Shown here one piece after another: positions 7,601-62,093 of a stretch of 64,000 nucleotides of DNA. How positions within the stretch are numbered: position 1 is the first letter of the stretch; each line of letters opens with the position of its first letter. Both the position numbers and the translations under genes were made by a program. Under the pieces are notes generated by a model. It searched no databases and had not been told where the DNA came from. It was given only the letters and a program-made list of their open reading frames with translations. The stretch is from an uncultured Planctomycetales bacterium. GTDB taxonomy: Bacteria; Omnitrophota; Gorgyraeia; Zapsychrales; JANLHA01. The stretch covers positions 26,094 to 90,093 of the forward strand of contig CAZAXH010000005.1 of NCBI GenBank assembly GCA_964489065.1, written 5' to 3'.

Positions 7601-7948
7601 GTGGATGAGAACCGGGAATTGAACCTGGAGCTTAAGCCCATATTGCCGGCCTGGCTTTTCAACCCGGAAGCCACCGCGAAGGAGTACGGCCCTCCCGGCA
7701 GCCGGCAACTTGAGACAATCCCTGCTGGCGGGTTTGCTTTTAACCTCCGGGGGCACACGCTTACGGTTTACCATAATCCTAAGATGAAAGGCACTTTTGG
7801 GGCAGACCCCGCCGTCATCCGGGATATGACTCTTCAGTATTACGGCCGGAAAGGCTTTATCGAGATCGAGGGCCCGGTCATTCCTGCCCCTTATGCCGAA
7901 GATGTGAGAGACCATAAAATCAGGCGTATTGATGTTTTTTTTGATTAG
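4658..7948 (+). CDS. Large (1096 aa) conserved hypothetical protein; tentatively glycoside hydrolase/phosphorylase-like (GH94/GT36-like superfamily?)
   Basis: Long clean ORF with GGAGAG 8 nt upstream. The N-terminal pattern FVIQQYNQAKPFSNFFPGIAGLWGIPMWVFYVNRGQGISSLG resembles the N-terminus of cellobiose/chitobiose phosphorylases (…TP.PW.NYLG…), and there is a GFWIDHWTYNLD motif. The family assignment is a guess without a search. Confidence 0.3.
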   Translation: MKKKTAKKTTASPYRFTEDEGFVIQQYNQAKPFSNFFPGIAGLWGIPMWVFYVNRGQGISSLGIESKDKAVLEFLPANKAYRLTSLQGFRTFLKIFSGAKSCLWEPFQDGAGLRTRQTMKIRAHDLTLEDVHPGLGLRVTVNYFTVASENYPALVRRVSLENMSRKNMRIECVDGLPLIMPYGMRDWALKNMSRTVEAWVRVNNLKHKAPYYHLNVEVADSPQVQHITEGHFYFCFAEGVPKPVLLDPIVDPAVVFGSNLDYVYPHGFYGQKKFEIPDVQHTSNRTPSAMSYGALSLPAGRSRTLTALIGYASSEKQLARIVRQATAQGFVEKKAADNKAVVDEVKQYVWMSSASPDLDQYVGQTFLDNVLRGGLPVSLPTAEGNEVFNVYSRKHGDPERDYNYFVLSPSYFSQGNGNYRDVNQNRRTDVWFNRDVKDTHIFTFLNLIQADGYNPLVVKGLSYAIAKPDKLKGVLKNCLKTPARDMPGLEAFLQESFQPGQLLKMIVDNDVRLSVAPAAFLGEILSLCQKNELADHGEGFWIDHWTYNLDLIESYLSVYPEALRPLLWDKKGFSFFLNTHYVLPRGQRFLLTPQGVRQYHAVYNDIKNIDAAAKGYKLRVQDGEGDVYYTSLFSKLLCLVANKSATFDPSGIGIEMEADKPGWYDALNGLPGLMGSSVCETLELKRLCLFLANSLDQLCLEEGETLWVFAELGNFIRELQALFTGEDDPLQLWHRGNDIKEHYRSRIRKGIEGGEHEFSVGQIRVFLSAVINRVDRAVALAAPGEELLPTYFYHEVTDYAQLEKTHQEWHYVMPVNFRRHALPLFLEGFVHLLRVEPGQEQARTLYRKLRKSPLYDRKLKMYKVNADLSGESEEIGRTRIFPPGWLENESIWLHMEYKYCLELLRNGLYDEFYETFRDILIPFQNPDQYGRSHLENSSFIVSSAHPDESLHGQGFVARLSGSTAEFIQMWLWMCAGRQPFYVDENRELNLELKPILPAWLFNPEATAKEYGPPGSRQLETIPAGGFAFNLRGHTLTVYHNPKMKGTFGADPAVIRDMTLQYYGRKGFIEIEGPVIPAPYAEDVRDHKIRRIDVFFD

Positions 7949-12015: not shown

Positions 12016-13038
12016 ATGCGTTTTGTTATCCCTGAGATTTTTTACGGTCTCTGGGCCGTGGTGCTTTTGGCGGCTTTCCTGAGCTTAGCCAGGCGACGGC
12101 GGGAAAAGTTTTATGAGCGCTTTGCGGACCACGGGCTCTTTTCGGACCTCGCGCCCACGCTGGTTCCCGGCCGCTATGCGTTGAAGCACGGGCTGCTTCT
12201 CGCGGTTTTTGTTTTCAGCCTGGTGGCGCTGGCCAGGCCGCAGTGGGGTTATGAAATGAGGGAAATCAAGATGCAGGGGCTGGATATCCTGTTGGTGATC
12301 GACACCTCCCGCAGTATGCTGGCCGATGACGTGAAGCCGAACCGGCTTGAGCGGGCGAAGCTGGCCGTCCGGGATTTCCTTCGGCATCTGGAGGGGGATC
12401 GTGTCGGACTGATCGCCTTTGCCGGCGATGCGTTTTTGATCTGCCCTCTGACCGTCGATTATGGCGGCTTTCTTCTCAGCCTGGATCATTTGGATAAAAA
12501 GAGTATCCCCCGGGGAGGGACCAATATCGCGCAGGCTCTGCGGGAGGCTTTGCGGGAATATGATAATACCCCCAGTCAATACAAAGTGGTGATTATCATT
12601 ACGGACGGGGAGAATTTGGAAGATGACCCGTGGGCAGCCGTGAAAGAAGCCAAAGACAAAGGGGTTAAAATTTATTGTGTCGGGATCGGGACGCAAGCCG
12701 GGGAGCTGATTAAAGACGCGGATATTTTCGGTCAGACGAGTTATGTCAAGGACGAACAGGGGAATATTGTCAAGTCCCGTCTGAATGAGGATTTGCTTCA
12801 GAGGATCGCTCTGGAGACCGGCGGCGTTTATGTCCGGGCTAGCGGCGCGGAATTCGGGTTGGATGTGATTTATGAAAAACAGCTGGCTAAATTGGAGAAG
12901 CGGGACATGGAAAGCGCAATGGCGAAAAGTTATTTTGAACGTTTTCAGTGGCCGCTCGGGTTGGGGTTGGTCTTTTTGTTATGGGAATTTTTTCTGCCTT
13001 TAAGGAGAGAGAACCGCAATGGCCGGCCGGCGTCATGA
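12016..13038 (+). CDS. batB: BatB (VWA domain membrane protein)
   Basis: TM helices precede ILLVIDTSRSMLADD (DxSxS) and VIIITDGENLEDD. There is a 2-nt gap after batA. Confidence 0.8.
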   Translation: MRFVIPEIFYGLWAVVLLAAFLSLARRRREKFYERFADHGLFSDLAPTLVPGRYALKHGLLLAVFVFSLVALARPQWGYEMREIKMQGLDILLVIDTSRSMLADDVKPNRLERAKLAVRDFLRHLEGDRVGLIAFAGDAFLICPLTVDYGGFLLSLDHLDKKSIPRGGTNIAQALREALREYDNTPSQYKVVIIITDGENLEDDPWAAVKEAKDKGVKIYCVGIGTQAGELIKDADIFGQTSYVKDEQGNIVKSRLNEDLLQRIALETGGVYVRASGAEFGLDVIYEKQLAKLEKRDMESAMAKSYFERFQWPLGLGLVFLLWEFFLPLRRENRNGRPAS

Positions 13039-14008
13039 TAGGATAAAGAGGCTGATAAGGGGGTTCGGCTGTCTGTGCCTGGCCGCCGGGGTTAGTGGGG
13101 CGGTGGCGCCGTCTGCCTTGGCTCTGTCACCCCAAAAAAGCATGCGTTTGGGGAATACCCTTTACGAAGGCGGCCATTATGAGGATGCCGCCGCGCAGTA
13201 TCAGGAGGCCCTGAATCAGGAACCGGAATCTCCGCTGATGAATTATAATCTCGGGACGGCACAATACAAGATGAACCATTATGACCAGGCGCGCAATCAT
13301 TTGCAAAAAGCCCTGCTTGCGGAGGGGGATTCCCTTCGTCAGAAAGCCTATTATAATTTGGGGAATGCTTCTTTCCGGCTAAGCCTTCAGCAGGAACCGG
13401 CTGACCTTCAGCAGGCGGTTTCTTCCATGGAAGAGGCGGTGACTTTTTATGAAAACGCTTTTAAAATAGATGACAAAGACCAGGACGCTCATTATAATTA
13501 TGAAATTGCGCGCAGGGAATTAGAGCGGTTGAAGAAAAAAATGGACGAGCAGGAGACGGAGCAGCAGAAAAAAGGCGGGCAGGAAAAACAGGATCAGAGT
13601 TCTGAAAGCCAGGGACAGGATGAACGCCAGGATGAATCACAGCAGGCGAGCGACAGGCCGTCTTCTCCCCGGCAAAAAGATGAAGAACGGGAAGACACTC
13701 CTAAGGAAAACCAAGGGCAGAGCCACAAGCGGGAGCCGGAAACCCAGGACGACCGCCATTCTGATGAGCAGGAGAGGCGGGAGCCAAACGACCAATTCGG
13801 ACAGGACAAATCGGGAGAAGAGGAATCCCCGTCTTCCCCTCCGCAGACAGGCCAGGGGGAGGCCCAGCCTCCCAAACAGCGCGCGTATTTTACTCCCGAG
13901 GAAGCCCGAATGCTTTTGAACAGATACCAGAGCAATGAAGAACCGCAGATGCTTTTTGATTCCGTGCTCCCGCCGGAGTCAGCAGCGCCGGTGGAGAAAG
14001 ACTGGTAG
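13019..14008 (+). CDS. batC: BatC (TPR-repeat protein with acidic/Gln-rich low-complexity C-terminus)
   Basis: A signal/anchor region is followed by TPR-like repeats (YEDAAAQYQEALNQEPESPLMNYNLGTAQYKMNHYDQARNHLQKAL) and then an E/Q/D/K-rich tail. Confidence 0.7.
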   Translation: MAGRRHDRIKRLIRGFGCLCLAAGVSGAVAPSALALSPQKSMRLGNTLYEGGHYEDAAAQYQEALNQEPESPLMNYNLGTAQYKMNHYDQARNHLQKALLAEGDSLRQKAYYNLGNASFRLSLQQEPADLQQAVSSMEEAVTFYENAFKIDDKDQDAHYNYEIARRELERLKKKMDEQETEQQKKGGQEKQDQSSESQGQDERQDESQQASDRPSSPRQKDEEREDTPKENQGQSHKREPETQDDRHSDEQERREPNDQFGQDKSGEEESPSSPPQTGQGEAQPPKQRAYFTPEEARMLLNRYQSNEEPQMLFDSVLPPESAAPVEKDW

Positions 14009-14015
14009 TCCGCGT

Positions 14016-15839
14016 ATGATTTTTCGAAATGTTATTCGCATGGCCCTTGTCGGCTTTGTGTTGTTGTCCTTCGGCCTGTGTCCGGCCTCGGCGGAAGATA
14101 TTTCTGTTACTGCTGAGGTGGACCGGCGGAGTATTGAATTGGGGTCTTTTTGCCAAATGAGAATCACGGTTCAGGGGGAGCAAAAGGTCGAGCCTGTGGT
14201 CTTGCCGAAAATTGAGGGGATGGAAACGCGTTATCTGGGCCCATCCACCAGCATCACGCTGATCAACGGCCAGTATTCCACCTCCCGGGCTTTTCAGTAT
14301 AACCTTTACCCTCTTTCTGAAGGCCGCTATACTATTCCGGCGGTTGACGTGGTTGTGAACGGCAAAACGTATTCCACGGAACCAATTTATATAGACGTCA
14401 CGGCCTCCCAGACCGCGGGGCAGGACCGGTTGAACGGCCCGAAGGATTCTTTGCAGGATAAAATATTTTTAACCTTGTCCGTGCCGCAGCGGGAATATTA
14501 CGTCAACGAACGGGTTCCGGTGACGATGAGGCTTTACATTCAGAACCTGTCGGTCCGCAATGTTCATTATCCGGAAATGGAGCATGTCGGCTTTATATGG
14601 GAGAACTCTCAGGATATTCAGCAAACGGCCGAGATCCTCGGCGGGCTGAAATATGACGTTATTACGTTTTATGCCCAGATTTATCCTACGAGGCCGGGGC
14701 CTTTGGCCCTGGGGCCGGCCGAGATCGTCTGCGATATTCTGTTCAAGAGGCCCGAGGCCCGGTCTCCTTTCGGCCGTGTGGACGGGTTTCTCAACGACAG
14801 CTTTTTCCGGGGCTTGTTTGACGACTATGATCAGCAGACGATTTCAATCAAATCCGCGGATTTAAAAATTTCCGTCCTGCCGCTGCCGGACGAGGGCCGG
14901 CCGAAAGAATTTTCCGGGGCGGTGGGCCATTATGATTTCGACGCCACAGTCACTCCGACGGAAATTAAGGTCGGCGATCCGCTTACTGTGCGCATGACCG
15001 TGAAAGGGACCGGGAATCCCGACGCGGTGCAGATGCCGGCGCTGGCCGGGGAAGGCGCTTTCAAATTCTACGAGCCGCAGGTGACGGAAAACCCGGGCAC
15101 TAAATCCGTGGAACAGGTGGCTATCCCGACGTCTGAGAATATCAAGGCCTTTCCCGCTTTGAGTTTTTCTTATTTTGACACCGATAGCCGTAAATACCGG
15201 ACGATCACCCGGGGGCCGTTCCCGTTAAAGATTGTGAAGCTTCAGGACGGGGAGAAGCTTAAAATCGTTGGGCTGAACAAAGACCCGGAACAACCTTTGG
15301 TTGAATTGGAACCGCTTGGCCAGGATATCCTTTTTATCAAGGATCGGCCCGGCCCGTTTTATTCCAGGGACCGGTTGTTCCTTTTTCAGCGTTTTGGCTT
15401 CTGGCTTCTGGTCATGGTGCTGATTTTGACCTGGGGCGGTTTGTATAGTTATTATCATTTCCACCGCAAACTGGCCACGGATTCCCGTTTCGCACGGCGG
15501 TTTCGCGCTCCCCGCGCGGCAAGAGAGGGGCTGAAAGAAGCCCAGGGTTTCATGACGCAGGGCGACAGCCGGCGGTTTTATGATATTCTGTTTAAAACTG
15601 TGCAGAATTATTTCAGCAATACTTTCCATATCCCGGGTGGCGCGGTGTCGCTGGACGTTGTTCTGGCTGTTTTAAGGGAGAAAAAAGTTCCGGACCCGGT
15701 CCTGGAACAGGTCCGGGCGTTTTATGCGGAATGTGAAAGTGTCCGCTACGCTCTGGTTCAATTGCCCCGGGAACAGATGGCCGGCAGTTTTTCCCGAGTC
15801 ACCGAGATTATCGAATTTATAGAGAAAAACGGCAAATGA
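14016..15839 (+). CDS. batD: BatD (oxygen-tolerance protein)
   Basis: The N-terminal signal peptide is MIFRNVIRMALVGFVLLSFGLCPASA. There is a single TM near residue 480 (FGFWLLVMVLILTWGGLY), and the size and position match BatD. I prefer the start at 14016 to the track's 13935, which overlaps batC. Confidence 0.75.
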   Translation: MIFRNVIRMALVGFVLLSFGLCPASAEDISVTAEVDRRSIELGSFCQMRITVQGEQKVEPVVLPKIEGMETRYLGPSTSITLINGQYSTSRAFQYNLYPLSEGRYTIPAVDVVVNGKTYSTEPIYIDVTASQTAGQDRLNGPKDSLQDKIFLTLSVPQREYYVNERVPVTMRLYIQNLSVRNVHYPEMEHVGFIWENSQDIQQTAEILGGLKYDVITFYAQIYPTRPGPLALGPAEIVCDILFKRPEARSPFGRVDGFLNDSFFRGLFDDYDQQTISIKSADLKISVLPLPDEGRPKEFSGAVGHYDFDATVTPTEIKVGDPLTVRMTVKGTGNPDAVQMPALAGEGAFKFYEPQVTENPGTKSVEQVAIPTSENIKAFPALSFSYFDTDSRKYRTITRGPFPLKIVKLQDGEKLKIVGLNKDPEQPLVELEPLGQDILFIKDRPGPFYSRDRLFLFQRFGFWLLVMVLILTWGGLYSYYHFHRKLATDSRFARRFRAPRAAREGLKEAQGFMTQGDSRRFYDILFKTVQNYFSNTFHIPGGAVSLDVVLAVLREKKVPDPVLEQVRAFYAECESVRYALVQLPREQMAGSFSRVTEIIEFIEKNGK

Positions 15840-16597
15840 AGACAATGATTGTTTTAATAGCTGTGATAGGTGTGATTTACGTCCTGCCGGTCTCGGCGGC
15901 GGAGGGGCCCCGGGACGAGGCCTGGGCCAGCTTTATTAAGGCGGGTTTTGCGTATCAGGAAGGCCAATATGATAAGGCGATCGTCCAGTATGAACACTTG
16001 CGCCAGCAGGGGCTGGTCAGCGGGGCGCTTTATTATAATTTAGCCAACGCTTATTTTAAAAAGGGGCAGATTGGGAAAGCGATCCTGAATTATGAGCGTG
16101 CCCGGGAGATCCTGCCCCGCGATTCCGACGTGCTGTCCAATCATAAGCTGACGCTTTCCCGTAGAGAACAGAATTTCCCCCTGCCCCGCAAGAGCATGAT
16201 ACAAAGAGGGGTGGAAGGCGCTCTGAATTATTACACGGTGAATGAATTTCTTGTCTTAACGGTTTTGTTTACGGTTATGGCCGGGGGCCTTTTCTTGGCG
16301 GCGCTGTTTCTCAACTGGCCGCGGCGGAAAATATGGCCCGTCATTACAATTTGTTTGACATTAAGTGTGTTATGCGTGACCGGGGTTGTCGTTAGAATGC
16401 ATCTCCGGGCCGGGGCGGGTTTTGCCGTTTCATCCACCGAGGCGTTTTTCGAGCCGCGTCCCGACGCCACCGTCCATTTCACGCTTAAGGAGGGGCAGAC
16501 GGTGAAGGTCCTCAAAAGGGAAGGGGCCTGGCTGAAGATCGAGCGGCCTGATCAAAAGGCGGGTTGGGTTGCGGCGGACACGGTTGAAACTATATAA
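15836..16597 (+). CDS. batE: BatE (TPR + C-terminal SH3b-like domain)
   Basis: A signal peptide precedes TPR-like YQEGQYDKAIVQYEHL...YYNLANAYFKKGQIGKAILNYERA, a TM segment and a C-terminal ...VKVLKREGAWLKIERPDQKAGWVAADTVE (SH3b-like). It overlaps the batD stop by 4 nt. Confidence 0.65.
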   Translation: MKTMIVLIAVIGVIYVLPVSAAEGPRDEAWASFIKAGFAYQEGQYDKAIVQYEHLRQQGLVSGALYYNLANAYFKKGQIGKAILNYERAREILPRDSDVLSNHKLTLSRREQNFPLPRKSMIQRGVEGALNYYTVNEFLVLTVLFTVMAGGLFLAALFLNWPRRKIWPVITICLTLSVLCVTGVVVRMHLRAGAGFAVSSTEAFFEPRPDATVHFTLKEGQTVKVLKREGAWLKIERPDQKAGWVAADTVETI

Positions 16598-16698: not shown

Positions 16699-17058
16699 GT
16701 GCAGGGCCTGCCGGAGAAACTGGACCTTTCTTTCGATCCCGATGCCACTTTGGTGGAGGAGCGGATCCTGCTGATTAAAGCTCACTATGCCCGGGAAGCC
16801 ATGGATTATGCTCGCAGGCGCAGGTGCGTTAACCCTTATAATCAAAAAATGTGCACAACTTACCTCGGTTTTTATGATATTATTGAATTATCCGGAATTC
16901 CTCAGGATAAAACCGAGGTCTTTTCTGCTGCGCGGTTGGTCAGCCGGAAGGTTTCTGATCAAAAAGTCGCCCGGATTTATATCGGGAAACGGCGTGGTAC
17001 TAAACAGATGATCCATAAAAAATTTGTTAATAAGGAATATAAGATGGAGGAAGAATGA
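16699..17058 (+). CDS. Hypothetical protein (119 aa, GTG start)
   Basis: An ORF with no motif I recognise. It overlaps the next gene by 4 nt (ATGA), which suggests translational coupling. Confidence 0.35.
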   Translation: MQGLPEKLDLSFDPDATLVEERILLIKAHYAREAMDYARRRRCVNPYNQKMCTTYLGFYDIIELSGIPQDKTEVFSAARLVSRKVSDQKVARIYIGKRRGTKQMIHKKFVNKEYKMEEE

Positions 17059-17597
17059 GAAGAATACGTAGGGCCCAATGGCTGGCTATCGTGGGAGTCC
17101 TGGTTGTTTGCGCTGCGCTGTGGATCCCGGGGACGCATGCGGCCGGGAAAAAAACGTTCCAAGAATTCTGTGCCCAGCAACATCAGGAAACAGGGAAATG
17201 CCCGGAAGATATTTGCTGGGAAAAAACGGTTGTCGGGGCTGATGAGAAAGACGAGATCCTGTGCCAGCCCCGGGAATGTCCGGATATTTCCGCGGACGCC
17301 TGCCCCAAAGACTACTGTGCGGTCATGGTTAACTGTTCGAACGAGAAGATTTGTCATTATCAGATGCAGGGGGAGAGGGCCCAGTGCGGGGATTTGGCTT
17401 ACGAGGGACAGGATGTGGAGTGCTGCCCCGGGCTTATCCGCCGTTGCGGGATTGAATTTTTAGACGGGACCTGCGATATGGAAGGGCGGGGGTCTATTTA
17501 TAGCCTGCCGATCTGTATCCCTTGCGGCGACGGTTTTTGTACGAATTTTGAAAGCCGGTGTAATTGCCCGGAAGACTGCGGAGAGCCGTTGAAATAA
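17055..17597 (+). CDS. Secreted cysteine-rich protein (~21 Cys in 180 aa), unknown function
   Basis: The signal peptide is MRRIRRAQWLAIVGVLVVCAALWIPGTHAAG. The mature part is packed with Cys, including a CPED(I)C motif near both ends (GKCPEDICW ... CNCPEDCG). It does not match the 4Fe-4S ferredoxin spacing. Confidence 0.5.
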   Translation: MRRIRRAQWLAIVGVLVVCAALWIPGTHAAGKKTFQEFCAQQHQETGKCPEDICWEKTVVGADEKDEILCQPRECPDISADACPKDYCAVMVNCSNEKICHYQMQGERAQCGDLAYEGQDVECCPGLIRRCGIEFLDGTCDMEGRGSIYSLPICIPCGDGFCTNFESRCNCPEDCGEPLK

Positions 17598-19028: not shown

Positions 19029-19709
19029 TTAGCGTTTAATATTGTTTAAAACCCATTCCTCATGATGATCCAATTTATTTTTAACACCCATAACAAAACG
19101 GCAGGTCTTGTCTCCTTTGGCCCGGCACATAATCTCCCGGGCGTCGAGGTCCATATTAAAACTCTCAGAACACCATCCTGCGGAATATCCGGAATTCATG
19201 ATGCAGACCGGCCTTGTGGCATGAGCGCCTTTGGCGGAGATGTGACTGTAGCTTTCGAAAGAATAGGGGTGGTCATAGATGAGAAAATAATTATCGTCTT
19301 GAGAAGGCTTGCTCTCCGGGAAAATATCGACAAAAGCCCACCCCGTATAATTAAAACTGATCGGGCCTGCCGCTAATTTGGCAACCGGGTCGGTCACCCC
19401 CTGCCGGGCCGCAAATTTTTGGGCGTCTGCCCGGCCAATAGACTTAGCTAAAATATATAAAAAATGATCTGCGGCTTCTTCGGCCATAGCATCGTTTAGG
19501 CCCATGGTTTCCCCCAAGTTTTTCGTAAATTCAAGCCGCAACGATTTAGCGTTAATTAAAATATAGCGCTCCCCGCTGATTGTGATCGTGCCTTCCAGCT
19601 TGTTGCAATAAAAGGAATCGAAAAAGTTGTTGACGTATTGCTCGGCCTGTTCAAACACCGGAACCATGGGGGGCGGAACTTTTACGCTTTGTAAAACCAT
19701 AAGCACCAT
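19029..19709 (-). CDS. V4R-domain protein (COG1719-like predicted hydrocarbon/small-ligand binding protein)
   Basis: The C-terminal RPVCIMNSGYSAGWCSESFNMDLDAREIMCRAKGDKTCRFVMG matches the V4R pattern (C..G...G...C.A.GD..C.F). Confidence 0.5.
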   Translation of the reverse strand: MVLMVLQSVKVPPPMVPVFEQAEQYVNNFFDSFYCNKLEGTITISGERYILINAKSLRLEFTKNLGETMGLNDAMAEEAADHFLYILAKSIGRADAQKFAARQGVTDPVAKLAAGPISFNYTGWAFVDIFPESKPSQDDNYFLIYDHPYSFESYSHISAKGAHATRPVCIMNSGYSAGWCSESFNMDLDAREIMCRAKGDKTCRFVMGVKNKLDHHEEWVLNNIKR

Positions 19710-22600: not shown

Positions 22601-24457
22601 ATGAACGATATTTCTTTTATCCTTTTTCACGCCGCGGTGCTGCTTTTCGGCGTGGTGTGCCTGACCAGAGTCATGAAGCTCGTTAAAATTTTGTCCTTTA
22701 TCATGTTTGCCGTTGGTTTGGCCATTATTGTGCAGGAGTACTCCGCGCGGCACCTGCAGGCCTTGATACAGCAGGAGCAGGGGACGGCGGTATCGTCTCC
22801 GGTTGCCGCGGGGGCGCCCTCCGGGCCGTCCGCGGGAGGCCCGTTGTTTGAGAAAGGCGTGTCCGCTGAAAAATCCGGGCAGTATGATCAGGCCATTCAA
22901 CTGTTCAGTCAGGTGATCGAACAGCATCCGGATTTTTTTGGCGGGTATCATCATCGCGGCGGCTGTTACACGATGAAAAAGGAATTTGAAAAGGCCCTGC
23001 AAGATTATCAGCGGGCGATCGACCTGAAGCCGGAGGAGGCGACGCTTTATTACAATCGCGGTTTGACCTTTTCGTTGATGGGGAAGGCCCCGGAGGCTTT
23101 GGCTGATTACAGCCGGGCGGTCGAATTGAATCCCGCTTACCTTAATGCGTATTTAACCCGGGGGACCCTGTATGCCGAGACCGGCCGCCTTGAGGAGGCG
23201 CTGGAGGACAGGACGAAAGTTATTCAACTCGATCCCCAAAATGCGCAATGGTACGGCGCCCGGGCTGCGGTTTATATTTTTCAGAAAGCTTTTGATAAAG
23301 CCTTGGCCGATTTAAATAAGGCCGTTGAGCTCGCGCCGGAAGATGCGTCTCTCCGTTTTTTTCGCGGGATGATTTACGCTGAAATGGGCCAGAAGGATAA
23401 GGCCTCGGCCGAGTTTAAGGCAGCCGAGACAATGGACGCGCAATATACGGGTATCGGCGAAAAGATGGCCGCATATATTACCCGTCAGAAAGAGGCCCGG
23501 GGAGGCTCCGCTCCGGCGGGGAAAGCAGAAGGGGATCGGGGACTCGTCCCCATGGAACAGGAAAATCTGGAGGTCTTGAAGAAAGAACCGGGCAACCTGG
23601 ATGCTTTGCTTTATCTGGCCACCGCGTATGTCGGGATAGGCAAGGGGGATTTGGCCGCGGAGTACGCCGAAAAAGCTCTTGCCGTAGACCCGGAAGCAGC
23701 GGCCAACCGGGATGCGATTCTGGTGGCGGCGATGGGGTATTATTATTCCGGCAACCTTAAAAAAAGTTACGCGATGGTTGGCCGGGCGCTGGAAAGGGCG
23801 CCGGATGACCGGGCCGCGCTCGACCTGAAACAGACCCTGGAATACGCCCGGGATAATTATTACGGCGGCGATATGCCGGAAGATGCTACTTTTGAAGGGT
23901 TCAAGACTTTATATGACGTGACCCAGGCGGTCGCGAACCTCGGGGTGGGGACCCCGGGCCGGGACGGCGAGCCGGATGAGATCCGTTACCAATCGGTCCG
24001 CATGACTATTAACCCGCCTCTTAACTGGCAGCGGGCCAGGAACACCCGTATGCCCAACGGCACGTACGTGATTTTTCTCTACGCCCAGGATACGGCCAGT
24101 CTGCTTCCTTCCATAGCGGTGACGCGGGACAATTTGCCGGAAGGGATTACGACCGCCCTGGATTTTTCCCGGTATGTGAACAAGATTATGGAAAAAGAGG
24201 TCGGTGGGGAGATGGATATCCCGGAGCCGAAAGCGGTTGATATCAACGGCCTGAAGGCGTCTTATATTGAGATGGGGGACAAGGCCCGCACCCGAAAGAC
24301 CGCGTGGTATCAGTTTTTAATCAGCGGCGCAATCTTCTCTTTCCAGTACACCAATACCGTGGAGAAATTCGAGGAAGGCCGCCGGGTTTTTGAAGATTTG
24401 GTGAGGAGCCTCGCGCTGGAGGAGGGGCAGGAACCAGCCTTTTCTGTGGGGAAATGA
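22601..24457 (+). CDS. Membrane-anchored TPR-repeat protein with uncharacterised C-terminal domain
   Basis: AAGGAG precedes the ATG at 22601. Two N-terminal TM helices are followed by at least six TPR units (YHHRGGCYTMKKEFEKALQDYQRAIDLKPEEATLYYNRGLTF...). The C-terminal roughly 200 aa carry no motif I recognise. Confidence 0.7.
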   Translation: MNDISFILFHAAVLLFGVVCLTRVMKLVKILSFIMFAVGLAIIVQEYSARHLQALIQQEQGTAVSSPVAAGAPSGPSAGGPLFEKGVSAEKSGQYDQAIQLFSQVIEQHPDFFGGYHHRGGCYTMKKEFEKALQDYQRAIDLKPEEATLYYNRGLTFSLMGKAPEALADYSRAVELNPAYLNAYLTRGTLYAETGRLEEALEDRTKVIQLDPQNAQWYGARAAVYIFQKAFDKALADLNKAVELAPEDASLRFFRGMIYAEMGQKDKASAEFKAAETMDAQYTGIGEKMAAYITRQKEARGGSAPAGKAEGDRGLVPMEQENLEVLKKEPGNLDALLYLATAYVGIGKGDLAAEYAEKALAVDPEAAANRDAILVAAMGYYYSGNLKKSYAMVGRALERAPDDRAALDLKQTLEYARDNYYGGDMPEDATFEGFKTLYDVTQAVANLGVGTPGRDGEPDEIRYQSVRMTINPPLNWQRARNTRMPNGTYVIFLYAQDTASLLPSIAVTRDNLPEGITTALDFSRYVNKIMEKEVGGEMDIPEPKAVDINGLKASYIEMGDKARTRKTAWYQFLISGAIFSFQYTNTVEKFEEGRRVFEDLVRSLALEEGQEPAFSVGK

Positions 24458-24563
24458 TTGTTTAGTGGGGCAAGTTCCCGGGAAAAGAATATTTTTGGGG
24501 ATGGGGGGGATGACCGGAATCACGGTATCGGATCCGTGTTGGCCGGTGTTTTGGGAGAACGGC

Positions 24564-27500
24564 TTAACGCGGGTGTTTGAGCGTGTGCATGGCGGGGATG
24601 ATCGTCCGGTTCGGCCGGTTGGTGCCGTCATAAAAAATATCGACGATCGGGATATTAAAATCTTTCTGCATTTTGCGGTAAATCGAAGAGGTTACTGAAC
24701 CCGGGCAGCAGAGGACGGGATTCACGTGGATGACGGCGTCAACGAGTTTGTGCCTGACGTAATAGAGCAGCCGGCAGACGTTGAGCGTGGTTTCCCCAGG
24801 GATGAAATGCTGTATTCCGTACGCGCGCATGAGCGCGACACATTCCTCGACCGGCGGTTCAAACACTTCGTCCAGGAATCCCCGGAAAACATTTTCAAAA
24901 CTTTTTTCATACAGCGTTAATTTGACCAGCGGCATTCTGTCTGCCCCGCTTTCCCGGGCGGCTGCGTCCATGAAATGCGCTCCGGTTTCCATATAGGACG
25001 GGATCAGAATCTCTCCCCCGAGTTCTTCAATCAGGCTGTAAATGTCCTGGTTGAGGACGGGATTATACTTCACATAAAGGTCTCCCACGAGGCCGACCCG
25101 CGGCCTTCTTTTCCCGGCGACAGGGACGTTCTCAAAGAGCGTCCGGATTTTTTTCGACGCGTTGAGCAGGTTTTTGCTGGGATGCAGAAATTCTTTGGCT
25201 TTGTTTAGGAGCGATTTCTGTTGTCCCGGATTTTCCTCCGGCGCTGGGCCCTCGCCGGTTGCGGCCCGGCCGGCCTGCAGAACATGCCGGATATAAAATT
25301 CGCTGATCGGCCCGCTGAGTTTTTGAGCGGAGATTTCCCACAGCGGGAGCTTTTTGTTGAGCTGGTCCTTAATAACCATCATGGCCTGGTCCAGGGCGCG
25401 CTGACTCGCGCCTGGTTCCTGCTCGTAGGGGTGTACCCGGAAATACAGTTTATACAGGAGCGACCCCAACACGCTGGACGCGGTTATGTCCAGGGATAAA
25501 TCCTGGGGCAGCCCCTGGCCCGTAACCCCCATTTTCGGTGAATAGATCCGTAGGTTTTTTATGCCTGCTTTCCGGCAGGCGGCCCAGATCAGGGAGGTGT
25601 ATTGATGGAAATTACACGCCACACACGAGTCCCCCAGATATAAAACACCGTTGGCGGTGTCGAGGCGGTTTTTTTGAAAGAGATCGACGATCGACCCCAC
25701 CACCGCGACGTTCGGCAGACATTCCCCCCCGGAAACATATTTGTACCCGAGCTGAATCATGACCGGGGCAAAGGGCAGGATTTCGGCCCGGTACCCTTTC
25801 GTGGTCAAGGCCGCGATGAGTATCTCATCCAGAATGGGGCTGAGGTAAGGGAAATAGATGATGTCGTTTTTCGTGATGCGGGGTTCATAAACGGGAACGG
25901 ACAGGGCGGACGGGCTTCCCGGGCGCGGCGCTGGCGGCGGCTGGATTTTGCGGTGCTGAAAATCGTTGCGGAAGGCGTCCAGCCCGGCTTCGATCCGGGT
26001 CTGATACCCGATGTCGCTGCAATGTTCGTCGAGCTGTATGACTAGATATGGTTTGCCGGCGGTTTCCATCATCTCTTTGAAGTAGGTCACGATGTAGGCG
26101 TCCGGACTGCAGTGGAAATTCGTTAAGAACACGGGATAGATATTGTCTTGTGTCAGGGCTGTTTCGGCGGCGAGCAGGATTTGCTGGCCGTAATGCCAGT
26201 GCATCCGGTCAAGATAGCGGGAGGAGAACGGGCCCGGCTCACGGGAAAGCTCGAGCATGGATTGGTGGATTAGTTCGCAGCCCAGCGCTTCCAGTTTGCC
26301 GGGAATCCCGCTGTTCAGCGTGCGGTCGAAGATAACATAGGGCCGCCCCAGGAGCAGAATTTTGATGCGGTCCCCGCCGGAATTCAGAATCCGGGTCCCG
26401 GCCTCTCGCCATCGGTTTTTTCTTTTTTCGTCGTTTTCAGACGCTTTCAGGAAAGCGTTGATCATGTCCGGTTCCGGATTCGGGATATGGCCCGCCAGCG
26501 ACCGGGCTATATCCCGCGCGACGTCTTCCTGCGGGCGGTTGTTTATTTTGATTTTAGGCGAAACCAGGATATCTTTGATGTCGAGAGTCACCAGGTTGTT
26601 CATGATCGTCGGCGCGTATTCTGAATAGAAACAAAAATAACAGTCCCGGTTTTTTTTGAGGAAATGCTCTTCCGCTGGCAGGGCGTCCAGACGGCTTTGC
26701 GCGTTGATGAACGCCGGGAAAAAGAGGATGTCGATTTTTCGCCCCGCCAGGGTTTTGACCAACCCGTGCGTGACAAGCATGGGCGAGCAGAAATCCGCGC
26801 GGGCGATGGCTTGGCCCTGCTCAAGGCACCTGGCCGCGTTGCGTTCCAGGACAATATTGAGGCCAAGGTTTTCAAAAAAATCAATAAAGAGCGCGGCGTA
26901 TTCTTTCATGTAAATACTTAAAGGAAGCCCGACTGTTTTCGCGTTTTTGGCCGGGGGGCAGGGCGAGGATTCGAAGATGTTTTGATAATCCTGCTCCAGG
27001 CGGGAGAGGGGGCGGCCCTGGCCCGGCCGGCGCTCGTCATAGTCCCGCCCGCACTTCATGCCCCAGGCCACGCGCGTCCCGTTGACGTCGAATATCGTGA
27101 GGGAGCAATGGTTCGCGCACAGGCCGCACAATTCGGTGCTGGTGCTGAAATTTAAGTTGAGGCCCCGGAAGCGGGAGGCGGCTGTGCCCCGTTCCATCAG
27201 GATAACGGCCGCGCCCAGGGCGCCGGTTAGATGGCAGTATTTGGAAACGAAAATCGGCTTGCCGATTTCGTTTTCGAACGCCGCGACGAGCGCCTTGTTC
27301 CTTGCCGTGGCTCCCTGGAAGTAAATGGTATCCCCCAAGAGGGTCCGCCCGGCCACTTTGGAAAGATAATTGTCTCGCACACTGAAGAGAACGGAGGCCA
27401 GGATTTGCGGTTTGCTCCATCCTTCGGCGATATATGTGTTTAGGTCCCGCTCCATATAGACTGTGCAGCGGCTGGATGTCAACGGCGCTTCCTGCCCCAG

Positions 27501-28874
27501 GGCCATTTCGGAAACCGCGGCGAGCGGGACATCCAGTTTTTTGGCCTGCTCCTCGATGAAGGAGCCGGTGCCCGCCGCGCAGACGTAATTCATGACCGCG
27601 GTGGCGACGTAGCCGTTTTTTAAAAGTGTGAATTTGGAGTCCTGTCCTCCGATCTCGATGATCGTGTCCACGTTCGGGTCCAGAAATGTCGCCCCCTTGG
27701 CATGGGCGGTGATTTCGTTCACGGCGAGATCGGCCTGGATCACTTCCTTGATGATTCTGCGGCCAGACCCGGTGACAGCCGCCCCCCGGATAGGCAGGGC
27801 CTCCGCCACGAAAAGGCGGGAGAGTTCTTTAAACAATTTGGCGACGGCCGCCACCGGGTCTCCGGACGTGCTGGTGTAGAGCCCGCAAAGCACGTCCTGG
27901 CGTTCGTTCAGGAGAATGCATTTTGTGCTGGTCGAGCCTACGTCGATGCCGAGAAACGCGTCCCGGGGTCCCCCCTCAAGGGCGTTGTACAGAGTGAACT
28001 CCACGCCGTCGTTCACGAAGGTCTTGTCCTGGTTAAAGTCCGGATACCGGGTCAATTTGATTTCAAGCTTTTCCCGGCATTGCCGGTTCATGCGGATATG
28101 GGATAGCCCGTCTAAAAGGCGCTGATCCGTTTCGTCTCCCAGCAGGGCGGCTCCCAGGGCGTTGAATGTCAAGGCCCCGTCCGGCACCGTCACCGGGACT
28201 TCAAGCGTTTTTTTTATTTCCGTTATGATTTTCCTGTTGCGGCTGACCCCGCCTATTAAAAGAATTGGCCCGTCTGGTTTGCGGCCGCCCAGGGTGTAGG
28301 CGAGAATGCTCCGGACAACCCCTTCGCAGATCCCGGCCGCAATCGCCTCTTTGGAAAAACCTTCGGCCTGGGAATGAATAATGTCGGATTTGGCGAAGAC
28401 GGAACACCGGGTTGCGATGGCCGGGGCTTTCCCCTGGAAGTGAAACGCTTTTTCCGCGAAATCGTCTGTTGAATATCCAAGCCGTTTGGCCTGTTGGTCC
28501 AGAAAACTGCCGGTGCCGGAGGCGCAGTCGGAGCTGAGGGCATGTTCGAGGTAATTCCCTTCTTCGTCCAGGAAAATGAGCGTGAAGGTTTCACAGCCGA
28601 TCGAGAGAATGTGACGGCAGCCGGTTTGTAATAACTGGTTGGCGCGGATACTGGCGAGAACAGGGTCGATAAGGCGGAACGTGTTTGCGGCGATGTTGCC
28701 GGTGATTCCGCAACTTTCGGCGGCGCCGAAGCGTTGCCGGGTGGCCTGGATTAAGCCCTGAATTTTTCCAAAAATGTCGCCCTGGTGTTCGACGCTTTCC
28801 TGGGCGATGATATTGTTGTTTTCAAGGACAACATAATGGATGTTCCTTGACCCCAAATCAAACCCGATTTTCAT
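24564..28874 (-). CDS. Giant (1436 aa) fusion: two BadF/BadG/BcrA/BcrD-type ATPase (2-hydroxyacyl-CoA dehydratase activase-like) domains plus a C-terminal DUF2229/HgdB-like region
   Basis: The first N-terminal domain is MKIGFDLGSRNIHYVVLE... and the second carries FLGIDVGSTSTKCILL. Both have the ASKHA/acetate-kinase-like phosphate-1 motif of CoA-substrate-specific enzyme activases. A long C-terminal region ends ...VNPVLCCPGSVTSSIYRKMQKDFNIPIVDIFYDGTNRPN, typical of the activase-associated DUF2229. Confidence 0.75.
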   Translation of the reverse strand: MKIGFDLGSRNIHYVVLENNNIIAQESVEHQGDIFGKIQGLIQATRQRFGAAESCGITGNIAANTFRLIDPVLASIRANQLLQTGCRHILSIGCETFTLIFLDEEGNYLEHALSSDCASGTGSFLDQQAKRLGYSTDDFAEKAFHFQGKAPAIATRCSVFAKSDIIHSQAEGFSKEAIAAGICEGVVRSILAYTLGGRKPDGPILLIGGVSRNRKIITEIKKTLEVPVTVPDGALTFNALGAALLGDETDQRLLDGLSHIRMNRQCREKLEIKLTRYPDFNQDKTFVNDGVEFTLYNALEGGPRDAFLGIDVGSTSTKCILLNERQDVLCGLYTSTSGDPVAAVAKLFKELSRLFVAEALPIRGAAVTGSGRRIIKEVIQADLAVNEITAHAKGATFLDPNVDTIIEIGGQDSKFTLLKNGYVATAVMNYVCAAGTGSFIEEQAKKLDVPLAAVSEMALGQEAPLTSSRCTVYMERDLNTYIAEGWSKPQILASVLFSVRDNYLSKVAGRTLLGDTIYFQGATARNKALVAAFENEIGKPIFVSKYCHLTGALGAAVILMERGTAASRFRGLNLNFSTSTELCGLCANHCSLTIFDVNGTRVAWGMKCGRDYDERRPGQGRPLSRLEQDYQNIFESSPCPPAKNAKTVGLPLSIYMKEYAALFIDFFENLGLNIVLERNAARCLEQGQAIARADFCSPMLVTHGLVKTLAGRKIDILFFPAFINAQSRLDALPAEEHFLKKNRDCYFCFYSEYAPTIMNNLVTLDIKDILVSPKIKINNRPQEDVARDIARSLAGHIPNPEPDMINAFLKASENDEKRKNRWREAGTRILNSGGDRIKILLLGRPYVIFDRTLNSGIPGKLEALGCELIHQSMLELSREPGPFSSRYLDRMHWHYGQQILLAAETALTQDNIYPVFLTNFHCSPDAYIVTYFKEMMETAGKPYLVIQLDEHCSDIGYQTRIEAGLDAFRNDFQHRKIQPPPAPRPGSPSALSVPVYEPRITKNDIIYFPYLSPILDEILIAALTTKGYRAEILPFAPVMIQLGYKYVSGGECLPNVAVVGSIVDLFQKNRLDTANGVLYLGDSCVACNFHQYTSLIWAACRKAGIKNLRIYSPKMGVTGQGLPQDLSLDITASSVLGSLLYKLYFRVHPYEQEPGASQRALDQAMMVIKDQLNKKLPLWEISAQKLSGPISEFYIRHVLQAGRAATGEGPAPEENPGQQKSLLNKAKEFLHPSKNLLNASKKIRTLFENVPVAGKRRPRVGLVGDLYVKYNPVLNQDIYSLIEELGGEILIPSYMETGAHFMDAAARESGADRMPLVKLTLYEKSFENVFRGFLDEVFEPPVEECVALMRAYGIQHFIPGETTLNVCRLLYYVRHKLVDAVIHVNPVLCCPGSVTSSIYRKMQKDFNIPIVDIFYDGTNRPNRTIIPAMHTLKHPR

Positions 28875-29046
28875 AATATGTCCTTCTGGCGGATGGATGA
28901 TGCGCTGGCCGGTTTCCGCTCAGGCTGTTTTTTTTGCCGCATAGATTTTTTATTCCCAGGATGGTACTGCTATCTTGGCACAGGTTGCCGCGGTTTAAAA
29001 GGCTTTTTTGGTGTAAATCCAGCCCGGGTGTCCCGGCAAGGGCTGA

Positions 29047-29220
29047 TTTTATTCAATGAGCATTTAATTTACACGACCGAAGGGAGTGTAAATGAGAGAT
29101 GCGAATTGATCCTTCAGCGAGAGAGTAAAAGCGAACGAGCCGAAGGATGGGGGTTGAATCTCTTTGGGTAAATTCCCCGCAGCTTGCTGCAGTTCATTGA
29201 GCCCGGAGCTTGCTCCGGGG
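29047..29220 (+). repeat. Structured intergenic repeat element, copy B (single unit plus two 3' hairpins with AGCTTGCT loops)
   Basis: Near-identical to 10146-10257 plus the 3' hairpin portion of copy A. The hairpin stems differ between copies while the loop AGCTTGCT is conserved (cccgg-AGCTTGCT-ccggg here; cccccg-c-AGCTTGCT-a-cggggg in A). Confidence 0.7.
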
Positions 29221-29393
29221 TTTATACCTTTTATTATGTCTTTGACCGGATGTCCTTTTATAGGGGGCAGGACGGCTTGGGGGGTGTTTCTGCGGTTTTC
29301 TTAATATGTTTTGATCAGGGATGACTTGGATTTTGGCCTTTTTCCCCGGGTGTGCGCCCGAAAACCGGCTGAAAGCCTTTATAAAATAATATG

Positions 29394-29422
29394 TTGAAAA
29401 AAAAAAGATTGTTAGGTATACT
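29394..29422 (+). promoter_or_regulatory. Candidate sigma70 promoter of the rpsB-tsf-pyrH-frr operon (TTGAAA-17-TATACT)
   Basis: ttgaaa at 29394-29399, a 17-nt spacer, then tatact at 29417-29422. The roughly 210-nt leader downstream contains three stable hairpins (see the next feature). Confidence 0.5.
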
Positions 29423-29635
29423 AGGGAAACTATTTTTTGGCCGGAATAACTTTGGGAAAGAAGGGAGAAGAGTTATTCCAGATGGCCAGGAGTCCGGGAA
29501 GGGCCCGGGCCGATACAGCGGCGGGGCGGTTCGGCATCCGCTGTATTGTCAATAACGATAACTTCACTTATGCTCGCTTGATAAAGGGAAGTCCTTTATG
29601 TTTCCCATAAGTGATCAAAGCACGAGGAGGAAAAG
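29423..29635 (+). promoter_or_regulatory. Structured 5' leader of rpsB (possible r-protein autoregulatory element)
   Basis: Inverted repeats ggaataactt/aagagttattcc (29443-29479), atacagcgg/ccgctgtat (29504-29536) and cacttatg/cataagtg lie just upstream of the RBS GAGGAGG and the ATG at 29636. Confidence 0.3.
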
Positions 29636-49858: not shown

Positions 49859-51124
49859 ATGATCGCATGGTTTTATAATCTGGTCTTTATCCTAGCGGCA
49901 GTTTTCTACGCGCCGTATTTGTGTGTAAAGGGGAAATGGCACAAGGGGCTTGTTTCCCGGTTGGGGCCGGTGCCGGAGGATGTGACCCGGTTTTGTTCGT
50001 CCGGGCCCGTGGTCTGGATCCACGCGGTGAGTGTCGGGGAGGTTCAGGCCGTCAGCCGATTCATGCGCTTGTTGCCGAGGTATGTCCCCGGCGTCAAGAT
50101 CGTATTGACGACCGTTACGCCGACGGGTTATCATCTGGCGGCCTCCCGGCTGGGCCCGGATTGCCGGCTGCTTTATGCCCCGTTGGATTTGAGTTGGGTG
50201 GTGCGGCATTATGTTCGCCGGATTCGTCCCCGGCTGTATGTCACCGCGGAAACCGAAATTTGGCCCAATCTGTTTATGGAACTCGCCGGACAGAATACCC
50301 CGGTGGCCATTTTTAACGGCCGTATTTCCAATCAGTCTTTCAGGCGTTACCGGGCCGTTGTTGTGTTGACCCGCCAGATCCTTCAGCACGTGACCCTGTC
50401 GTGCGTGCAGACCCGGGAGGATGCTGACCGTATGTGCTGGCTCGGGGCGCCGGCGGACCGCGTGCATGTGCTGGGCAACGTAAAGTTTGACGAGGCTTCC
50501 CTGGAGGAAGGGTATGCCCGGGAGCGCGTGGGTTATGATGGGAAGGATGACATCTGGGTCGCGGGCAGCACTCATCCCGGCGAAGAAGACATTATCCTGA
50601 GATGTTTCACTGCGCTCAGGAAAAAATTCCCCCGCCTGAAATTAATTCTTGCTCCCCGGCATGTCGAGCGGGCTTCCGAGGTTTGCTCTCTGGTGGAAGC
50701 TTATGGTTGGCGGCCGACTTTGTGGAGCCGGCATATGGAGGGCCGGCTGGAGAAGGAGGCCGTGCTTGTCGTGGACACGATCGGTCATTTGAGGAAGATT
50801 TACGCCCTGGCAACGGTCGTCTTTGTCGGCAAGAGCCTGGTGGGCGGAGGGGGACAGAATATCATCGAACCGGCCGCGTACGGGAAACCGGTCATTGTAG
50901 GGCCGGCCATGGATAATTTTGAGCGGGTTGTTGAGGTCTTTAAGAATGCCCAGGCTATCGTGCAGGTCCGCGGGCCGGAAGAGCTGGAAGAAGCCCTGCG
51001 TTCTTTGCTGGAGGATTCGGACCGGCAGACGGCTTTAGGGCGGCGGGCCCGGGCGGTCGTCCTCGCGCAACAGGGCGCTACGGAAAAATCTCTTGCCTTG
51101 ATTTCCCCTTTGCTTGCGAAATAA
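49859..51124 (+). CDS. waaA: 3-deoxy-D-manno-octulosonic acid (Kdo) transferase
   Basis: The N-terminal membrane anchor and WIHAVSVGEV motif are present, with the C-terminal GT-B domain ...GGQNIIEPAAYGKPVIVGP. Confidence 0.9.
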   Translation: MIAWFYNLVFILAAVFYAPYLCVKGKWHKGLVSRLGPVPEDVTRFCSSGPVVWIHAVSVGEVQAVSRFMRLLPRYVPGVKIVLTTVTPTGYHLAASRLGPDCRLLYAPLDLSWVVRHYVRRIRPRLYVTAETEIWPNLFMELAGQNTPVAIFNGRISNQSFRRYRAVVVLTRQILQHVTLSCVQTREDADRMCWLGAPADRVHVLGNVKFDEASLEEGYARERVGYDGKDDIWVAGSTHPGEEDIILRCFTALRKKFPRLKLILAPRHVERASEVCSLVEAYGWRPTLWSRHMEGRLEKEAVLVVDTIGHLRKIYALATVVFVGKSLVGGGGQNIIEPAAYGKPVIVGPAMDNFERVVEVFKNAQAIVQVRGPEELEEALRSLLEDSDRQTALGRRARAVVLAQQGATEKSLALISPLLAK

Positions 51125-51171
51125 TATAAATATTAAAACAAATGTAATGAAACTATAGTAAAATATTTAAA

Positions 51172-54181: not shown

Positions 54182-54208
54182 CCATTCGTGGTCTGAATCC
54201 ATCTGAAT

Positions 54209-56314: not shown

Positions 56315-56507
56315 CGTCGCGTTTCTCATGGCAAGAGGGGGGAGGAAATGACGGCGCGATCTTTTTTTGTCCGCCTTCGCAGGAGACCCTGGGCATGCCC
56401 GGGGATGAAGGCGGGAGGTTAATAAGATCTTCTGTTGCGGGGGCTGTTCGCACGTATGTTAAGAAACTGCAGTATTCCGTGAAGGGAATTGTTAGGAAAT
56501 ACTGTGG

Positions 56508-57632: not shown

Positions 57633-57680
57633 TAAGCCTGGCCCGGGCTGGTTTCAGCCCCGGGGGAAGGTGGAAGAGGC

Positions 57681-59905: not shown

Positions 59906-59945
59906 ATATGAATGCTTTATAATTTTTTTAAACCCCTATTGTTCC

Positions 59946-62050: not shown

Positions 62051-62093
62051 GGCGGATACCCCGCGTAGGGCAACGGATAAGGAGCACCTTGTT

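Follow-up and report, generated by a model that had tools for sequence, protein, structure and literature searches.

The gene and its reading frame

The 64,000-nucleotide stretch of DNA analyzed here (the window; contig CAZAXH010000005.1 of the Omnitrophota assembly GCA_964489065.1) carries on its minus strand, at 24564..28874, an open reading frame (ORF) for a fused protein of the PlsA-PlsR/Ger type. The frame is complete and uninterrupted, begins with ATG, encodes 1436 amino acids and ends with a stop codon at 24564-24566. It is preceded by a Shine-Dalgarno-like AGAAGGA (28881..28887, minus strand), which was read directly in the upstream sequence 6 nt 5' of the ATG, and the single polypeptide described in a first-pass annotation of this DNA is thus real. 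Judged by its sequence, the protein is a member of a family already known in kind, represented by the plasmalogen synthase PlsA/PlsR (2021) and its homolog Ger, the glycerol ester reductase (2022), from a phylum that has so far not been named as a carrier. We consider it probable that the protein uses ATP to reduce glycerolipid esters to vinyl or alkyl ethers and is sensitive to oxygen.

The protein is identical to a public entry (P0001) on a 162-kb contig, has relatives in Candidatus Omnitrophota metagenome-assembled genomes (MAGs) with 76-80% and 64% identity, and shows no predicted transmembrane helix. Its gene is monocistronic, convergent with a gene for a tetratricopeptide repeat (TPR) protein and divergent from rpsB-tsf-pyrH-frr. 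The placement between rpsB and the TPR gene is kept in two Omnitrophota relatives, and synteny is retained in relatives from this phylum with 64-80% identity. The G+C content at the target gene (24001-28000) is 0.55-0.57 compared to 0.47-0.53 in the flanking 2-kb bins, but the conserved synteny in related Omnitrophota argues against a recent transfer. No CoA-pathway or catabolic genes adjoin the gene in the window, in agreement with the earlier remark that genes for a CoA-transferase or acyl-CoA dehydrogenase are missing nearby, and across 71 related loci no neighboring gene family recurs beyond genus-level synteny.

The spacer between the target gene and the divergent rpsB (28875-29635) is non-coding and, with 761 bp, unusually long. 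Of the flanks that had been annotated, a TPR protein and a repeat element, the first is present but the second was not found in the spacer, which holds no direct or inverted repeat and gave no Rfam match at E ≤ 0.1. Sigma-70-like hexamers occur in the spacer at 29394-29422(+), 29546-29574(+) and 29415-29386(-), which is no more than expected by chance.

ATPase modules

The N-terminal part of the protein consists of two ATPase modules of the HgdC/BcrAD type with an ASKHA fold. Module 1 comprises residues 1-260 (28095..28874; this and all further parts of the protein are on the minus strand) and module 2, a canonical archerase with the motifs GIDVGSTSTK and EIGGQDSK, residues 306-562 (27189..27959). 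The connector between them, residues 261-305 (27960..28094), was delimited by the secondary structure and the predicted local distance difference test (pLDDT) of an AlphaFold2 (AF2) model. Pfam model PF01869 (BcrAD_BadFG, E 1.9e-56, 192 bits with a cut-off of 31.5) and NCBIfam model TIGR00241 ('acyl-CoA dehydratase activase', 264 bits with a cut-off of 125) each cover two stretches, in accordance with the two BadF/BadG/BcrA/BcrD modules proposed earlier. Sugar-kinase and ROK models, the alternative that the first-pass annotation had raised, scored negligibly, with E values no better than 1e-5, archerase models reaching 1e-56 to 1e-78, and this identity was rejected.

The two modules share 25% identity (E 3e-18). 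Module 2 matches HgdC, HadI and MbdQ with E values of about 1e-33 to 1e-34; its best match is MbdQ, and that of module 1 is MbdP. In HgdC, a single [4Fe-4S] cluster sits at the dimer interface and is held by Cys127 and Cys166 of each protomer. C432 and C470 in module 2 line up with the cluster-bridging residues of HgdC, HadI and MbdQ, and C117 and C157 in module 1 line up with both cluster cysteines of MbdP. All four are invariant in a set of 116 full-length homologs with 39-80% identity, so the expectation of two cluster-ligating cysteines per ATPase is borne out. An AF2 model of residues 1-640, based on an alignment of these 116 sequences, had a pLDDT of 88.8 and a predicted template modeling score (pTM) of 0.81. 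A single module-sized region of this model (~260 residues, either module 1 or module 2) could be superimposed on MbdQ, HadI and HgdC with a template modeling (TM) score of 0.85-0.90, the root-mean-square deviation being 2.1-2.2 Å.

The phosphate-binding motifs differ between the modules. In module 2 all residues of the phosphate-1 (DxGSTxxK) and phosphate-2 (DIGGQD) motifs are invariant in the 116 homologs. In module 1 the motifs are degenerate (DLGSRNIH and SIGCET): Lys at position 13 is kept in only 10 of the 116 proteins; at position 91 the acidic residue has given way, most commonly to Ser (13 of 20 sampled), with none of the four commonest residues being acidic; and at position 96 Asp is outside the five commonest residues, Thr or Ser being found in 98 proteins. 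The residues equivalent to Lys13, the acidic residue 91 and Asp96 are kept in all 11 Pls-type proteins examined, whose module 1 shows canonical GSTTAK and ELGGED motifs where the target has GSRNIH and SIGCET. The reverse asymmetry was seen in a more distant group of homologs, g2 (e.g. P0345-P0389), in which module 1 has canonical motifs and Asn stands in for the phosphate-1 Lys of module 2 in 15 of 21 proteins. Fused proteins of this kind may repeatedly have lost one of their two ATP sites.

Linker and reductase domains

The remaining ~800 residues had been annotated as one DUF2229/dehydratase-like domain. Both DUF2229 and a dehydratase-like fold are present, but the region is composed of a small four-cysteine domain and two larger domains with the fold of the 2-hydroxyacyl-CoA dehydratases (HAD). 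The covalent fusion of two HgdC-like protomers with dehydratase- or reductase-like acceptor domains is thereby confirmed at the level of architecture. The N-terminal motifs that the annotation had quoted, as well as NPVLCCPG and IVDIFYDGT, were found and vary little or not at all among the 116 homologs.

The mini-domain (residues 576-612; 27039..27149) is a β-hairpin with modelled β-strands and an invariant C583-x2-C586-x3-C590...C608 pattern, and is probably a Zn or Fe-S site. Reductase domain 1 (residues 645-975; 25950..26942) corresponds to the end of PlsA, contains C696, C748 and C922, and has a fold shared by HAD, benzoyl-CoA reductases (BCR) and double-cubane cluster proteins (DCCP). Pfam DUF2229 (PF09989) matches residues 647-873 (E 1.6e-35); the HGD-D model (PF06050) matches residues 915-963 with a score below threshold (18.9 bits, cut-off 28.4). 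A Pro-rich interdomain linker (residues 976-999; 25878..25949), visible as a dip in pLDDT and located where the chain is split in two-gene systems, leads to reductase domain 2, the PlsR equivalent (residues 1000-1436; 24567..25877), which holds the universal C1052, C1087 and C1389 and the clade-specific C1084, C1345 and C1390. This domain is interrupted by a helical insertion of 58 amino acids (residues 1176-1233; 25176..25349) with lower pLDDT. The insertion is common to P0001-P0007, the closest relatives, which belong to the Omnitrophota where the taxon is known (P0002, P0005), and a partial version is found in P0038, P0049 and P0057.

An AF2 model of residues 567-1436, from the same alignment, had a pLDDT of 90.8 and a pTM of 0.90. 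Foldseek comparison with the PDB gave DCCP (7yyl_A, 6eno) as the best match (E 1e-5), followed by BzdO/MbdO and HadC, all with probability 1.00 and 11-13% identity, and no other fold at E ≤ 1e-3. Searches of the PDB with this region by sequence, as a single query or with profiles, gave no match even at E ≤ 10; the kinship of both domains to HAD and BCR chains is, as judged from the model, seen at fold level only.

In the clade of the target protein, designated clade B below, neither C696/C748/C922 nor C1052/C1087/C1389 varies, and both cysteine triads are kept in the other groups compared, except that a Paraclostridium bifermentans outlier lacks the second. In typical members the domain 2 cysteines are 35 and about 250 residues apart. 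This resembles the arrangement of Cys95, Cys128 and Cys380, the ligands of the catalytic [4Fe-4S] cluster in BzdO (PMC11971306), a likeness of spacing only. A regular expression for the seven-cysteine motif of the DCCP-type double cubane, CX19CX18-19CX29CX166-170CX32-34CX32C (PMC7317905), found no match in the protein, and a double-cubane site of this type was rejected.

Conservation in the 116 homologs is high: it reaches at least 97% at 238 positions, and 15 cysteines never vary. By region, invariant cysteines are C117 and C157 in module 1; C432, C470 and C547 in module 2; C583, C586, C590 and C608 in the linker; C696, C748 and C922 in domain 1; and C1052, C1087, C1389 and C1390 in domain 2. 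C1084 (112 of 116) and C1345 (108 of 116) are nearly so. Two wider groups, g1 and g2, keep the invariant cysteines of clade B except C547.

Relation to plasmalogen synthase and glycerol ester reductase

The protein family had been described in the first-pass annotation as widespread but biochemically uncharacterized, with the substrate open. This view is outdated, because the architecture is that of PlsA/PlsR and Ger. Matches of a literature search on 'DUF2229' lead only to bacterial ether lipids. Fusions of 420-1800 amino acids, in which dehydratase or reductase subunits are joined to 'archerase' ATPases, were described in 2020 in a review on the FldB/C family (PMC7317905). The anaerobic plasmalogen synthase PlsA/PlsR was found in Clostridium perfringens, where it is encoded by CPE1194/1195; a single fused gene is present in Enterococcus, Lactococcus, Bifidobacterium and Listeria, and Ger is a 'modified' homolog of PlsA/PlsR (PMC8788747, PMC9702350, PMC12838417). 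The Ger enzymes of Thermotoga maritima (Tmari_0479/AGL49404) and Desulfatibacillum alkenivorans (SHJ90043, 1458 amino acids) possess two PF01869 modules, PF09989 and small HGD-D/DUF2229 fragments (PMC13159169). Anaerobic expression of Ger alone in E. coli yields 1-O-alkylglycerols (PMC13159169) and small amounts of diethers (PMC11150832). The enzyme genes alone, either one fused gene or plsA plus plsR of C. perfringens, are sufficient for ether lipids in E. coli (PMC13159169, PMC12838417). The single-gene, monocistronic state of the target fits these reports on Ger and fused PlsA. The absence of CoA-transferase and acyl-CoA dehydrogenase genes is expected as well, since the known PlsA and Ger substrates are membrane glycerolipids rather than CoA esters.

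The target shares with Ger, compared by description, a single polypeptide of ~1400 amino acids with two PF01869 stretches, PF09989 and HGD-D-like fragments (PMC13159169). For the Pls type, stand-ins from Listeria, Collinsella and Fusobacterium were used, found by tblastn of PLSDB; several 'plasmid' records of 2-5 Mb in this database (NZ_CP030101.1, NZ_CP154629.1, NZ_CP084075.1 and others) are evidently whole chromosomes. The only homolog on the L. monocytogenes chromosome has 1475 amino acids and aligns colinearly with target residues 4-1292 (27% identity, E 1e-114). Listeria is reported to form plasmalogens anaerobically via its pls ortholog (PMC9702350). A Collinsella protein is colinear over target residues 1-1416 (E 5.6e-96), and its gene is directly preceded by a TetR gene, as described for pls loci; no TetR regulator is found upstream of the target gene. 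The Fusobacterium version consists of two genes for proteins of 975 and 404 amino acids, which match target residues 2-956 (E 4.6e-90) and 1000-1288 (E 3e-12). This pair corresponds in size to the C. perfringens operon, and the split, with the PlsA-like gene ending at target residue 956, falls at the Pro-rich linker of the target. Identity to the three stand-ins is low, at 24-28%. From these alignments, residues 1 to ~975 can be equated with PlsA and ~1000 to 1436 with PlsR. The order of domains (two archerase modules, four-cysteine linker, DUF2229 domain 1 and PlsR domain 2), the metal-ligand cysteines, the colinearity over nearly the whole length and the stand-alone gene are all shared. Fourteen cysteines (C117, C157, C432, C470, C583, C586, C590, C608, C696, C748, C922, C1052, C1087 and C1389) are kept in every clade-B and Pls-type protein aligned, and the P. 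bifermentans outlier alone lacks some. Four further cysteines conserved in clade B (C547, C1084, C1345 and C1390) are missing from the Pls-type group; three of these, C1084, C1345 and C1390, are in the PlsR-like domain beside the universal cluster ligands.

A distance tree and identity matrix separate two deep clades. Clade A, the Pls type, contains the proteins of Listeria, Paenibacillus, Collinsella and Fusobacterium with 43-68% identity among them. Clade B includes proteins from Omnitrophota, Spirochaetota, Desulfobacterales (among them the cultured Desulfoluna and Desulforegula), Elusimicrobiota and Planctomycetota, with 36-64% identity, and the named hosts all belong to lineages that we take to be mainly anaerobic. 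Ger hosts are also anaerobic, and the Desulfobacterales and Planctomycetota are groups with a 'modified plsA' reported from other species (PMC8788747). Surveys count homologs from Spirochaetota and Desulfobacterota as Ger homologs; in Omnitrophota they record homologs of Mss and ElbD, and the phylum is not listed among Ger carriers (PMC11868695). The operational cut-off for Ger homologs is E ≤ 1e-50 with coverage of at least 30% against T. maritima Ger, and scores of the target protein very probably pass it, as judged from those obtained with the Pls-type stand-ins.

Clade B spans at least 80 species of GTDB, with an upper bound of 214 species that match a genome motif scan for RCTVYMER and HxNPxxCCPG. 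These patterns are specific to the narrow clade B, and the loci of the best 80 of the 214 species were used. Complete genomes with a gene of the target's type include those of an Omnitrophota bacterium (OY759724.1) and Desulfoluna limicola (AP024488.1). Desulfatibacillum alkenivorans is not among these best 80, whereas other Desulfobacterales are, and its Ger is probably outside the narrow clade; the scan would miss a 'halo' group with 30-40% identity. A search with the C-terminal 870 residues against 1.84 billion cluster representatives (50% clustering) returned 2425 with E ≤ 1e-3, 381 of these with E ≤ 1e-30, which shows a large and heterogeneous superfamily of at least four sequence groups. 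Among full-length proteins in the best 150 representatives two further groups were recognized: the 'halo', which is joined to clade B by chains of at least 38% identity, and g2, which is ~28% identical to the target. Named members of the 'halo' group come from MAGs of Myxococcota, Acidobacteriota/Thermoanaerobaculales, Aminicenantia and Syntrophales, and the verified Ger enzymes may sit here. On plasmid pHD0315_2-2 of Paraclostridium bifermentans (L082:3995-7843) a relative of 1282 amino acids was found with two ATPase modules and DUF2229. It lacks the linker four-cysteine site and all domain 2 cluster cysteines, is followed by ABC-transporter genes, and probably has a different function.

Possible catalytic mechanism

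The architecture and the comparison with other archerase systems suggest a possible mechanism. The two N-terminal modules would pair within the chain as a pseudo-dimer, C117/C157 and C432/C470 together holding one [4Fe-4S] cluster, as in the HgdC homodimer. By analogy with HgdC, BCR and the reductase of DCCP (DCCP-R), binding and hydrolysis of ATP would lower the potential of this cluster and inject single electrons into the acceptor domains. Since the canonical residues for phosphate binding are gone from module 1 in clade B, ATP is probably turned over by module 2 alone. The two HAD-fold domains would act as a pseudo-heterodimer, each carrying a [4Fe-4S]-type site with three Cys ligands and one Fe left free. 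The ester carbonyl could bind at this open Fe and be reduced via a ketyl-type radical. On the basis of homology, the ester that is reduced is most likely the sn-1 acyl group of membrane glycerophospholipids, and possibly the sn-2 group too. For PlsA and Ger, two one-electron reductions of the sn-1 ester followed by protonation and dehydration have been proposed. In the target protein, two electrons and dehydration would accordingly lead to an alk-1-enyl (plasmalogen) ether, and two more (four in total) to a saturated alkyl ether, which is the chemistry of Ger. Such a mechanism needs no dedicated partner genes, which fits the stand-alone position and the lack of a recurrent neighbor in the 71 loci.

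Three other groups of enzymes use related parts. In HgdAB with HgdC and HadBC with HadI, the archerase cluster is likewise bridged by two cysteines per protomer, and the acceptor has the same fold and three-cysteine [4Fe-4S] sites (PMC7317905). However, in these systems the homodimeric activator is a protein of its own that acts catalytically on an equally separate heterodimer, and a CoA thioester serves as substrate; the target has four modules in one chain, no detectable sequence match to HgdA/B or HadB/C and no CoA-pathway context. The class I benzoyl-CoA reductases (BzdNOPQ, MbdONPQ) resemble the target in that a heterodimeric ATPase pair delivers electrons, with stoichiometric ATP coupling, to two HAD-fold subunits. 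The target differs from them by the lack of a BzdN-like six-cysteine double-cubane site, an identity of only ~11-13% at fold level and the absence of aromatic-degradation genes nearby. DCCP and DCCP-R (YjiM and YjiL in E. coli) match the acceptor region, for which DCCP is the best Foldseek match, and the ATPase modules, respectively; but DCCP is a homodimer of 420-residue subunits served by a separate ATPase, and its seven-cysteine motif is missing in the target.

Alternative products, substrates and functions

Several points weigh against a role as glycerolipid ester reductase. At 23-27% identity between clades A and B, the target protein belongs to a separate deep clade, in which no experimentally verified enzyme has been placed, the comparison set consisting of the Pls-type stand-ins. 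Among the window ORFs scanned, no gene for phospholipid synthesis or an Mss-like radical S-adenosylmethionine enzyme was detected. Finally, Ger2 of D. alkenivorans (SHK01260), a close paralog of the active Ger, is reported to have yielded no ether lipids when assayed in the same way (PMC11150832), and homology within the PlsA/Ger family is therefore no guarantee of activity.

If the protein does reduce glycerolipid esters, a specific assignment to either a plasmalogen, as made by PlsA, or an alkyl ether, as made by Ger, is an even bet. The product cannot be read from the sequence, in which no diagnostic feature was found, and the group that defined Ger states that Ger and PlsA are at present indistinguishable by sequence (PMC13274423, PMC11868695, PMC13159169), which applies to both assignments. 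For an alkyl product it can be argued that two ATPase modules in one chain are correlated with alkyl-ether producers (PMC13274423). This correlation is weak, since the Pls-type proteins of Listeria, Collinsella and Fusobacterium also have two modules. Clade B further includes Desulfobacterales and Planctomycetota, and other members of these groups are reported to carry a 'modified plsA' and to make alkyl ethers but not plasmalogens (PMC8788747). It is a matter of speculation that the extra cysteines act as hydrogen donors for a second two-electron step. Positive evidence for a vinyl product was not obtained.

A second possibility, which we regard as unlikely but worth keeping in view, is that clade B is a paralogous branch acting on a substrate other than a glycerolipid, for example a CoA thioester, an aromatic compound or, as in the case of DCCP, a small molecule. 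The deep divergence from the Pls-type proteins and the failure of Ger2 to produce ether lipids keep this possibility alive. The loss of phosphate motifs in module 1 and the extra cysteines C547, C1084, C1345 and C1390 would also fit a change of substrate, as would the size and heterogeneity of the superfamily, with its 2425 representatives in at least four groups, and the existence of a P. bifermentans plasmid branch that has even lost the linker and domain 2 cysteines. Against it, CoA or catabolic genes are neither adjacent in the window nor recurrent across the 71 loci, the DCCP motif is missing, the domain order and all shared metal ligands are those of the lipid enzymes, and both activities verified for this architecture, PlsA and Ger, act on glycerolipids.

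More doubtful still is the related proposal that clade B is a functionally distinct branch in which module 1 is a non-hydrolyzing scaffold and C547, C1084, C1345 and C1390 either set an alkyl-ether product or mark a switch to a non-lipid substrate. That the protein is a decaying or non-functional relic, as the loss of canonical nucleotide-binding residues in module 1 might suggest, is very improbable and effectively refuted by the conservation pattern: the frame is intact with a ribosome binding site, the conserved positions and invariant cysteines are maintained in homologs from several phyla, synteny is kept in the Omnitrophota relatives, and the degeneration of module 1 is common to the whole of clade B and thus an old, selected state.

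Possible role in Omnitrophota

The Omnitrophota are uncultured and often ultra-small bacteria with a wide distribution in anoxic habitats. Palaeoclimate proxies include bacterial alkyl ethers and branched glycerol dialkyl glycerol tetraethers (GDGTs), whose producers in anoxic environments are still debated. If the protein is a glycerolipid ester reductase, as we propose, an Omnitrophota lineage would make ether-linked membrane lipids without oxygen, and this phylum, which is not among the listed Ger carriers (PMC11868695), would be added as a candidate source of anoxic ether lipids. The features of clade B are refinements of a known system rather than signs of a new one. The contrast with the Pls type, i.e. 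a first ATPase site that has degenerated and additional cysteines next to the cluster ligands, would offer a handle on the ATP requirement per electron and on the choice between vinyl and alkyl products.

Other genes in the window

The window is rich in envelope-lipid genes, including lpxB, msbA, waaA, lpxK, a gene for an lpxL-like acyltransferase, genes for heptosyltransferases of glycosyltransferase family 9 (GT9), kdsA and kdsB. This richness in lipid A/lipopolysaccharide (LPS) genes weakly supports a lipid function. A run of lipid A/LPS-core genes on the plus strand (49859-63736) begins with waaA (49859-51124) and lpxK (51172-52242), followed by a gene that joins an LpxL-like acyltransferase to an ELM1-like domain (52211-54181) and by one for a GT4-GT9 fusion (54209-56314). 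It further holds a GT4 gene, three genes for GT9 heptosyltransferase-like proteins, a PfkB kinase gene, kdsB and kdsA.

Just left of the target gene are lpxB and msbA. Between these two a 226-residue V4R-domain protein with a weak XylR_N match is encoded (19029-19709, minus strand), which is kept in an Omnitrophota relative (L002). Adjoining lpxB, at 17055-17597 (plus strand), is a gene for a protein whose 180 amino acids include over 20 cysteines and a hydrophobic segment at the N-terminal end; no Pfam match was found for it. An ORF of 1096 codons at 4658-7948 (plus strand) had no Pfam match at E ≤ 1e-5. Bat-like genes, of the aerotolerance type, occupy 13019-16597 (plus strand) and encode a TPR/acidic protein, a BatD-domain protein (13935-15839) and a protein with TPR and SH3 domains (15836-16597).

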